From Escherichia coli (GTDB lineage: Bacteria; Pseudomonadota; Gammaproteobacteria; Enterobacterales; Enterobacteriaceae), in the NCBI RefSeq assembly GCF_003018115.1, contig NZ_CP027457.1: a DNA stretch of 64,000 bases, one strand, 5' to 3'. Positions within the stretch are counted from its first letter, which is position 1. The number at the start of each line of letters is the position of its first letter. The position numbers were made by a program. Shown here one piece after another: positions 44,801 to 47,800 of this stretch.

Positions 44801-47800
44801 GCAAGGCGCTGCGCCTGAGATTCACTCAACGTGCCCAGCGTCATACACGCCTCCAGCCCCATCGCTTTTACCCCCTGCACCATTTGTTCCAGGTACGGCA
44901 TATCGCGTTCGTGGGGATTCTTCCACGCCGCGCCCATACAGAAACGCGTCGATCCTGCCGCTTTCGCTTTGCGCGCCGACTCCAGCACCTGTTCAACTTC
45001 CATCAACCTCTCGGCTTCCAGCCCGGTTTTGTAGCGCGAGCTTTGCGGGCAGTATTTGCAATCTTCCGGACAAGCTCCGGTCTTAATCGACAGCAACGTG
45101 CTGACCTGCACCTGACGAGGATCGAAATGCTGGCGATGCACCTGCTGCGCTTCAAACAGCAGATCCAGCAACGGTTTTTCAAATAATTCTGTGACTTGCG
45201 ACAATGTCCAGCGTGGGCGGTGAGCCATGGGGCTTCTCCAAAACGTGTTTTTTGTTGTTAATTCGGTGTAGACTTGTAAACCTAAATCTTTTCAATTTGG
45301 TTTACAAGTCGATTATGACAACGGACGATCTTGCCTTTGACCAACGCCATATCTGGCACCCATACACATCCATGACCTCCCCGTTACCGGTTTATCCGGT
45401 GGCAAGCGCCGAAGGTTGCGAGCTAATTTTGTCTGATGGCAGACGCCTGGTTGACGGTATGTCGTCCTGGTGGGCGGCGATCCACGGCTACAATCACCCG
45501 CAGCTTAATGCGGCGATGAAGACGCAAATTGATGCCATGTCGCATGTGATGTTTGGCGGTATCACTCATGCGCCAGCCATTGAGCTGTGCCGCAAACTGG
45601 TGGCGATGACGCCGCAACCGCTGGAATGCGTTTTTCTCGCGGACTCCGGCTCCGTAGCGGTGGAAGTGGCGATGAAAATGGCGTTGCAGTACTGGCAGGC
45701 CAAAGGCGAAGCGCGCCAGCGTTTTCTGACCTTCCGCAATGGTTATCATGGCGATACCTTTGGCGCGATGTCGGTGTGCGATCCGGACAACTCAATGCAC
45801 AGCCTGTGGAAAGGCTATCTGCCAGAAAACTTGTTTGCTCCCGCCCCGCAAAGCCGCATGGATGGTGAATGGGATGAGCGCGATATGGTGGGCTTTGCCC
45901 GCCTGATGGCGGCGCATCGTCATGAAATCGCGGCGGTGATCATTGAACCGATTGTCCAGGGCGCAGGCGGGATGCGCATGTACCATCCGGAATGGTTAAA
46001 ACGAATCCGCAAAATGTGCGATCGCGAAGGTATCTTGCTGATTGCCGACGAGATCGCCACCGGATTTGGTCGTACCGGCAAACTGTTTGCCTGTGAACAT
46101 GCAGAAATCGCGCCGGACATTTTGTGCCTCGGTAAAGCCTTAACCGGCGGCACAATGACCCTTTCCGCCACACTCACCACGCGCGAGGTTGCAGAAACCA
46201 TCAGTAACGGCGAAGCCGGCTGCTTTATGCACGGGCCAACTTTTATGGGCAATCCGCTGGCCTGTGCGGCTGCAAACGCCAGCCTGGCGATTCTCGAATC
46301 TGGCGACTGGCAGCAACAGGTGGCGGCTATTGAAGTACAGCTGCGCGAGCAACTTGCCCCCGCCCGTGATGCCGAAATGGTTGCCGATGTGCGCGTGCTG
46401 GGGGCAATCGGCGTAGTCGAAACAACTCGTCCGGTGAATATGGCGGCGCTGCAAAAATTCTTTGTCGAACAGGGTGTCTGGATCCGGCCTTTTGGCAAAC
46501 TGATTTACCTGATGCCGCCCTATATTATTCACCCGCAACAGTTGCAGCGTCTGACCGCAGCGGTTAATCGTGCGGTGCAGGATGAAACATTTTTTTGCCA
46601 ATAACGGGAAGTCAGCGTGTGGGTTTCTGGCTACACTTTCTGCAAACAAGAAAGGAGGGTTTATGAAACTCATCAGTAACGATCTGCGCGATGGCGATAA
46701 GTTGCCGCATCGTCATGTCTTTAACGGCATGGGTTACGATGGCGATAATATTTCACCGCATCTGGCGTGGGATGATGTTCCTGCGGGAACGAAAAGTTTT
46801 GTTGTCACCTGCTACGACCCGGATGCGCCAACCGGCTCCGGCTGGTGGCACTGGGTAGTTGTTAATTTACCCGCTGATACCCGCGTATTACCGCAAGGGT
46901 TTGGCTCTGGTCTGGTAGCAATGCCAGACGGCGTTTTGCAGACGCGTACCGATTTTGGTAAAACCGGATACGATGGCGCAGCGCCGCCGAAAGGCGAAAC
47001 CCATCGCTACATTTTTACCGTTCACGCGCTGGATGTAGAGCGTATTGATGTCGATGAAGGAGCCAGCGGCGCGATGGTCGGGTTTAACGTTCATTTCCAC
47101 TCTCTGGCAAGCGCATCGATTACCGCGATGTTTAGTTAATCACTCTGCCAGATGGCGCAATGCTATCTGGTATCACTTAAAGGTATTAAAAACAACTTTT
47201 TGTCTTTTTACCTTCCCGTTTCGCTCAAGTTAGTATAAAAAAGCTGAATGCGAAACAGCAAACCAAATAATATCAATACGTTACAATGCATTTAGTCTAA
47301 AAAATAGACTGCATAATGCTACAAAACACAACATATCCAGTCACTATGAATCAACTACTTAGATGGTATTAGTGACCTGTAACAGAGCATTAGCGCAAGG
47401 TGATTTTTTGTCTTCTTGCGCTAATTTTTTGTCAACACACTGGGTTAGCTAAATTTACAACCATGCTCAGTATCTCGATAAGCGCAGAGAAATGATGCAG
47501 TGGTGGGCAGACTGGTTTGATAGGAAGGTGTAACCTGAAAGTAGCACACAGCCTTTATTCCGTTTACCAGGCTTTGTGCTATAACTCTTGCATAACATCA
47601 TTATTAACATCAATTTCCATTCAAATTGATTTTATTTAATCTAAATTAACAAAATGTAATCCTCATTTAAACGCATATTTAAAATCATTATCTATTTCAC
47701 AAGCATATTTTTATTATTTCTTTTGAAAACAACATTGGTTAACAACCTTATTACAGGTTTTTCTAAGTAGTAACTAAATATCATTGACGTTATTAAAGCG

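Follow-up and report, generated by a model that had tools for sequence, protein, structure and literature searches.

The 64-kb window, by which we mean the whole stretch of Escherichia coli DNA analysed here (64,000 nucleotides), contains one end of a prophage at attLambda. Our preferred reading, to which we assign a probability of about 0.85, is that this end is the attR left by a temperate P22-like podovirus whose lambda/434-type integration module recombined at attLambda, between ybhC and ybhB. As judged from the sequence, the crossover lies in the 15-bp core, with the B' half of the site on the ybhB side and the P arm, its predicted Int and IHF sites and tI/sib on the prophage side; beyond tI/sib there follows an apparently intact P22-like conversion and virion module, which extends up to the window end. 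This would be a clean example of lambdoid mosaicism, one that pairs a P22-type virion with an integration module of the lambda/434 lineage and in which the scar of the displaced module is still visible.

The attR junction at attLambda

The left 47 kb of the window are E. coli chromosome, read here in the direction opposite to that of MG1655, and carry a gene run from ompX through ybi and ybh genes, moa, uvrB, bioDCFB and bioA to ybhB. This chromosomal part is 97.5-98.5% identical to K-12 and 99.3% identical to O169:H41 strains, which are its best chromosome match, and the window is collinear with MG1655 over ybhB-bioA-bioBFCD-uvrB. The features of this flank and of the junction are as follows.

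39025-41046, minus strand: uvrB
46663-47139, plus strand: ybhB, a 477-nt ORF and the bio-side chromosomal neighbour of attLambda
47222-47229: cgctcaag, the B' flank of attB, which aligns with MG1655 attB without a difference
47230-47244, minus strand: 15-bp lambda common core GCTTTTTTATACTAA, the crossover region; an exact match, 15/15 to the lambda and 434 cores

Read on the top strand, positions 47230-47244 are TTAGTATAAAAAAGC, the reverse complement of the lambda core GCTTTTTTATACTAA, and the core occurs only once in the window even when two mismatches are allowed. The core of phage 434, classically known to use attLambda, consists of the same 15 bp. In a four-way alignment of the window, MG1655 attB, lambda and 434, the window equals MG1655 attB from the ybhB side through the core; past the core it tracks the attP of lambda and 434 (TGAA.G.GAAAC...) and not the chromosome (AGGCTTCAACGG...). 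The cgctcaag flank also aligns with the attR of both Sakai Sp3 and vB_EcoP-720R6. The arrangement of the junction is P-O-B', that is, a lambda-type attR on the bio side, at attLambda. P22-like phages usually use att sites of the tRNA type, but this possibility was rejected here, as no tRNA gene was found anywhere in the 64-kb window.

The P arm and the tI/sib terminator

The Int sites were placed by means of the annotation in the lambda GenBank entry J02459, and the features on the prophage side of the core are listed in order of distance from it.

47245-47390, minus strand: P arm of a lambda/434-type attP, recognised by homology to lambda and 434, by conserved Int sites and by matches to the IHF consensus
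47271-47283: match to the IHF consensus WATCAANNNNTTR, H2 position
47333-47352: P2 (the lambda 'int 2' site), 19/20 identical to the lambda annotation
47349-47361: match to the IHF consensus WATCAANNNNTTR, H1 position
47365-47384: P1 (the lambda 'int 1' site), 20/20 identical to the lambda annotation
47382-47432, plus strand: tI terminator/sib hairpin of the lambda int transcript, an inverted repeat distal to P1

By BLAST, the arm is 87.0% identical to lambda J02459 27528-27742 (E 4e-66) and 91.8% identical to phage 434 over 301 query bases (E 4e-117). Over 47230-47430, identities amount to 174/202 for lambda, 194/202 for 434 and 195/202 for O157 Sakai Sp3, which by sequence makes the arm a 434/Sp3 variant (96-97%), nearer to 434 and O157 Sp3 than to lambda (86%). 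Relative to lambda, from which the arm differs overall by its 86-87% identity, most changes fall between the core and P2; conservation extends to P1, P2, the putative IHF sites and tI/sib, and the two attR junctions further share the 15-bp core, the B' flank, the position between ybhC and ybhB and the orientation with respect to bio. An exact CAGTCACTAT lies inside P2, at 47338. The IHF matches at 47271 and 47349 presumably occupy the positions of H2 and H1 in the lambda attP map. As for putative Xis and Fis sites, comparison with lambda by eye suggests that X1 is conserved and that X2 carries two changes.

The tI/sib sequence is invariant in an alignment of lambda, 434, Huey, Sp3, 720R6 and Gally, and the stretch carries a terminator annotation in the phage 434 record. 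Its hairpin has a predicted fold of -24.2 kcal/mol (z = -5.15) and is followed by a U run.

The original prediction had placed a lambda-type attR downstream of ybhB, and the attB flank, the exact 15-bp core and a lambda-family P arm were indeed all found there. It had given the bacterial flank as CGCTCAAGT; the flank itself stands, but CGCTCAAGT runs one nucleotide into the first base of the core. Its identification of the lambda attP P arm was borne out by the alignment of the att arm with lambda, with the refinement that the arm is of the 434/Sp3 variant.

The P22-like late region

From 47692 to the window end, the gene order is that of the P22 late region throughout and all genes are full-length ORFs, save for the portal gene, which is cut by the window end.

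47692-48756, minus strand: acyltransferase family 3 membrane protein (Pfam Acyl_transf_3, E 2.9e-30)
48851-50875, minus strand: tailspike, 674 aa, starting MSDITANVV (Pfam Head_binding, E 1.9e-67)
50964-51263, plus strand: Mnt/Arc-type repressor of the immI region (Pfam Arc, Repressor_Mnt)
51910-53907, minus strand: gp16-like ejection protein, at the position of PF26808 Phage_P22_gp16 in L069, a dacD-side P22-like prophage
53907-55295 and 55305-55997, minus strand: gp20-like and gp7-like ejection proteins (Pfam Inj_translocase, P22_gp7)
56000-59281, minus strand: gp14-like protein (DUF2824), tail needle gp26 with an Sf6-type knob, gp10 and gp4 (Pfam DUF2824, Phage_tail_NK, Phage_stabilise, P22_Tail-4)
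59830-61125, minus strand: coat (Pfam P22_CoatProtein, E 2.8e-166)
61125-62036, minus strand: scaffold (Pfam Phage-scaffold, E 1.7e-179)
62050 onward, minus strand: portal, cut by the window end at 64000 (Pfam P22_portal, E 9.3e-138)

A protein with a WDGH domain is located between gp4 and coat in this gene order. Every member of the syntenic P22-like set scores above the Pfam gathering score except gp16, and the 665-aa gp16-like gene has a counterpart in L069 that is 97.5% identical in DNA. For the tailspike we adopted the 674-aa form, a protein which is on record with exactly this sequence in other P22-like prophages, and not the 690-aa ORF from the first ATG, for which there was no exact-protein match. 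The acyltransferase lies beside the tailspike, a position that it also has in other P22-like prophages, and is probably an O-antigen acetylase for lysogenic conversion.

At the DNA level, 63% of the late region aligns with E. coli phage IME10 at 96% identity, and 47-52% of it with Dewey, Louie, CurroJimenez_Bas106 and Gally at 95-97%. A look-up of the coat protein was unspecific, with 8660 blocks returned. Because the virion genes are P22-like by Pfam, we rejected the reading of a plain lambda-like prophage.

An integrase relic at the mosaic joint

A short remnant of a different integration module separates tI from the first P22-like gene.

47453-47533, plus strand: relic of an argW/KplE1-type integrase gene, comprising its last 26 codons and the stop, and marking the mosaic joint

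The frame of this relic reads IYNHAQYLDKRREMMQWWADWFDRKV followed by a stop, with a stop codon just ahead of it. The P22-like prophage vB_EcoP-611R6, which is integrated at argW, has a CPS-53-type integrase CDS whose final 84 nt match the relic with 92.2% identity (L005 2319-2395, E 6e-27); in both elements, this sequence has the same orientation with respect to the O-acetylase and tailspike genes. In the KplE1/HK620/Sf6/CUS-3 module, the integrase gene lies beside attL and reads away from argW (PMC2951348), which brings its 3' end up against the conversion and tailspike genes, where the relic is also found in the window. The argW-type modules (KplE1/CPS-53, HK620, Sf6, CUS-3) thus have the integrase type and orientation of the relic; they differ from the window in that only 26 codons are left here and in that the functional att site of the window appears to be of lambda type. 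A full-length IntS-type integrase beside a tRNA-Arg attL is absent from the window, which holds only the 26-codon 3' relic and no tRNA.

Homology to several elements begins or ends at this short stretch: it runs out at 47530 for 434 and Sp3, and it begins at 47452/47453 for IME10, Dewey and Louie and at 47476 for P22-like prophages on the dacD side. Lambda itself, in the alignment, has no relic distal to tI. On these sequence comparisons, we place the mosaic joint at 47453-47530. Since the last 26 integrase codons persist between tI and the acyltransferase, the P22-like genome would formerly have carried an argW/KplE1-type module, and the most economical explanation is that most of it gave way to a lambda/434-type xis-int-attP-tI cassette.

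The mosaic of a lambda-type integration module and a P22-like virion, as originally predicted, was in this way upheld and its joint located; Pfam and synteny likewise agree with the prediction that the structural genes (coat, portal, needle, tailspike) are P22-like and not lambda tail genes.

The stretch 47476-47530 is common to 434/Sp3-type and P22-like elements, and near-identical P22-like late regions are found joined to three integration modules (attLambda, a site on the dacD side, argW); the breakpoints lie at 47453 and 47476. It is possible, if doubtful, that the 55-80-bp relic beside tI is a recurrent exchange joint and not an inert scar, and that homologous recombination at this place swaps integration modules between lambdoid morphotypes. 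If true, such a joint would let lambdoid phages change their chromosomal site and hence the host genes that they mobilise by lateral transduction.

The other end of the prophage

The opposite end of the prophage falls outside the window, and relatives are informative about what it might contain. Draft assembly GCA_000781455.1 has the same junction, with 99.87% identity over window positions 37692-51818, and its prophage continues uninterrupted (contig JSOX01000029.1) through terminase, lysis genes, Q, nin, O and DnaB, cII and cro to cI, where the walk ended, some 9 kb before the point at which int is expected; Cro and a 90-aa protein at the end of the walk are present in tens of thousands of contigs. 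Among complete RefSeq E. coli genomes, none carries the attR junction and the acyltransferase of the window together. A related P22-like prophage with its tailspike beside ybhB occurs in at least 17 complete E. coli genomes. One of these relatives, in NZ_CP019008.1, has the order ybhB-attR-relic-tailspike...cI...xis-int-attL-ybhC, with two exact cores 39.66 kb apart and an Int that is identical to lambda Int at 352 of 356 positions. The GenBank record of vB_EcoP-720R6 (ON470605) shows the same structure between ybhB and ybhC, and in the free phage Huey (PQ850609) a xis-int-core-P arm-tI-relic block adjoins the tailspike module.

By analogy with these relatives, the phage module would have the order xis-int-P'-core-P-tI/sib, and a lambda-family Int and Xis, together with a second core (attL), would be expected about 23 kb past the window end, beside ybhC. 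The integrase of this prophage very likely lies beyond the window end, as the original prediction had presumed. Excision would proceed as in lambda, with Int, Xis and IHF/Fis acting on attL and attR, and the prophage state would separate sib from int, as in a lambda lysogen.

The best-placed rival to our reading is that of a defective remnant, in which the attR end and the late genes survive, the int/xis/attL end has been lost or disrupted, and the element is locked in the chromosome. It draws on the location of the other prophage end outside the window, on the fact that defective prophages are common in E. coli, and on the related NZ_CP019008.1 prophage, whose early-left region contains split DUF551 pseudogenes and an insertion of the IS3 family. 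On the other hand, the virion genes from tailspike to scaffold are all full-length ORFs with full-length Pfam matches, and the near-identical junction in GCA_000781455.1 is followed by the uninterrupted late, lysis, nin and replication region described above. We consider such a remnant unlikely, and the comparative lines suggest a complete, working integration module.

Origin of the att arm

A second rival concerns the way in which the mosaic arose. The arm could have been contributed by an older, resident 434/Sp3-like siphovirus prophage into which a P22-like phage recombined by way of the shared relic, in which case the lambda-type module would not be a regular part of any circulating P22-like genome. 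The near-identity of the arm to O157 Sp3 (195/202) fits such a hybrid formed in situ, and the 47476-47530 stretch shared by both kinds of elements would provide a substrate for homologous recombination. However, Huey, a free phage from sewage, and the prophage-derived vB_EcoP-720R6 both carry the module within P22-like genomes, and the arm and tailspike region are also found in a plasmid, at a different site.

This plasmid-borne copy comes from two metagenome assemblies and is 99.6% identical to window positions 47230-51818. Its flank switches exactly after the core to a phage-plasmid of about 109 kb with siphovirus structural genes, and the uninterrupted plasmid site, GTTCCCTATACGAAGATG, resembles the core only in part, which is the configuration expected if Int had mediated insertion at a secondary site. 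A search for the attL of this copy by way of the plasmid DNA ligase returned only uninterrupted plasmids. Insertion of the arm together with the tailspike region at a different site implies that the arm travelled with the phage, and a secondary-site insertion in a plasmid would mean that the att/Int system of this phage lineage was active recently. We therefore judge formation in situ to be very unlikely, and favour an arm that arrived as part of the P22-like phage genome.

A chance resemblance, or an assembly chimera of chromosome and phage contigs, is effectively refuted: we found no point in its support, the BLAST E-values of the arm range from 4e-66 to 4e-117, the breakpoint lies exactly at the core, and the junction recurs, among the matches listed, in an independent NCBI assembly, with eight further similar places.

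Packaging and relation to known elements

P22-like prophages package DNA by the headful mechanism, starting from a pac site in the small-terminase gene and moving in the direction in which the late genes read. The late genes of the window point from the window end toward ybhB, so that packaging in situ along this direction (lateral transduction) would be expected to carry ybhB-bio-uvrB-moa and beyond, as has been reported for phiHS3 at the same site.

The kind of mosaic described here, and its use of attLambda, are already documented by Huey, 720R6, complete genomes and phiHS3. That P22-like phages differ in their integration modules (thrW, argU, argW) has been known for a long time (PMC2629481, PMC2951348). 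In experiments described in a 2026 preprint, phiHS3, which is P22-like, was shown to form lysogens of E. coli HS 'upstream of the ybhC gene', the same site as here, to excise spontaneously, to be inducible by mitomycin C and to perform lateral transduction (bioRxiv 10.64898/2026.05.19.726188). A literature search combining P22-like phage, ybhC and integrase found nothing, and the announcement of Huey, Dewey and Louie does not discuss integration. What the window adds is one combination of tailspike and acyltransferase with the lambda-type module, a combination that one public draft assembly already contains. The finding is nothing new in kind, and its value lies in the correct annotation of the locus.

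Each of the known systems shares part of this arrangement. Lambda, which resembles the window at attR, lacks the integrase relic and has the J/b region where the window has P22-like podovirus genes. Phage 434 attP and the attR of O157:H7 Sakai Sp3 (CP-933K-type) have the closest arm variant and the same relic up to 47530; past the relic, elements of the 434/Sp3 type carry siphovirus b-region cargo (nleC, nleD, nleH), whereas the window carries the acyltransferase and tailspike. Huey, 720R6, the NZ_CP019008.1 prophage and phiHS3 have the same architecture, a lambda-type module beside P22-like tailspike and conversion genes, but they differ from the window in their tailspikes and conversion genes and partly in their ejection proteins, with an arm identity of 89-91%. 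Conversely, P22-like prophages on the dacD side (NZ_CP062855.1 from O20:H12; L067 and L069) share the virion module, their late region, tailspike and acyltransferase being 97.5-99.9% identical to the window from 47476 rightward, and differ in att arm and chromosomal location. Additionally, a lambda-like P arm of about 78% identity is found beside the late genes of P22-like Salmonella phages (SI5, SF10 and others).

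Probable exchange of integration modules among P22-like prophages

P22-like prophages that adjoin dacD, namely those in L002 (NZ_CP062855.1) and in the comparison sequences L067 and L069, have late regions that are 97.5-99.9% identical to that of the window prophage, and L069 carries the same variants of gp20 and gp16. Their att arm, in contrast, differs from that of the window, with a breakpoint at the equivalent of window position 47476. Near-identical late regions combined with different att arms indicate that integration modules were recently swapped between near-identical phages.

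Beside the lambda-type module of the window prophage lies a relic of an integrase of another type:

47453-47533, 3'-terminal 26 codons of an integrase gene of the argW/KplE1 type, with the lambda-type tI hairpin on one side and the acyltransferase gene on the other

Phage 434, the O157 prophage Sp3, Huey, 720R6 and Gally also have this relic, but lambda itself lacks it. Its equivalent in NZ_CP019008.1 is annotated in RefSeq as an N-terminally truncated pseudogene.

Phage Gally (L007, OV696608, 4880-5260) shares with the window the distal P arm (P1, H1 and P2), tI and the relic, but differs from it in the core-proximal arm and in the core (ACAACTTATTCACCTAAAGGATG). This difference points to a module of the lambda family whose core specificity is not that of the window, and which may resemble HK022.

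A P22-like copy joined to a phage-plasmid

A P22-like prophage with 99.6% identity to window 47230-51818 was found in ENA assemblies ERZ28589708 (scaffold_2) and ERZ27238746 (k111_4826), represented by the comparison sequences L022, L023, L045 and L068. It joins a non-mobilizable phage-plasmid of about 109 kb, which encodes tape measure, capsid, portal, ParA/ParB, DnaB and primase proteins, and the junction falls exactly after the 15-bp core (L022, 11513-11560). The prophage appears to have inserted into the phage-plasmid at a secondary lambda att site, which in the empty plasmid pRHB14-C22_3 reads GTTCCCTATACGAAGATG.

Occupied attLambda in another genome and replaced segments of the chromosome

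The complete genome closest to the chromosome of the window is that of strain F9792 (NZ_CP024273.1; L061, 789500-793000). Its attLambda is also occupied, but by a different prophage, in which the genes next to ybhB encode a tail-fiber assembly protein and, as cargo, a diguanylate cyclase. Two segments of the window stand in place of K-12 genes:

17668-21961, AT-rich islet of 4.3 kb between dinG and rhlE, in place of ybiA
32676-33940, segment of 1.27 kb in place of ybhM

Among 5,426 complete E. coli genomes, 156 carry the first segment, which makes it a known variable islet. In its 670-aa ORF, which RefSeq calls the T3SS effector EspX2, there is a HECT-like E3 ligase domain of the SopA_C type (E 3.4e-15), and its 561-aa ORF has no match in Pfam or PADLOC. 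The ybhM-replacing segment, which has no match in PADLOC, carries three short ORFs: one of 92 aa, one of 122 aa that matches DUF3969 (E 1.2e-18), and a hydrophobic one of 114 aa.

Two ORFs within the prophage

51298-51819, plus strand, 173-aa ORF between the mnt-like repressor gene and gp16
59202-59790, minus strand, WDGH-domain ORF (Pfam PF25311, E 2.1e-39) between coat and gp4

The first of these has a lipoprotein-like N-terminus (MKKSLLIIPLLLVGC) and no match in Pfam or PADLOC; it probably represents a moron that the prophage expresses. In relatives its counterpart is 161 aa long. The slot between coat and gp4 is variable among related prophages, with products of 61-203 aa.
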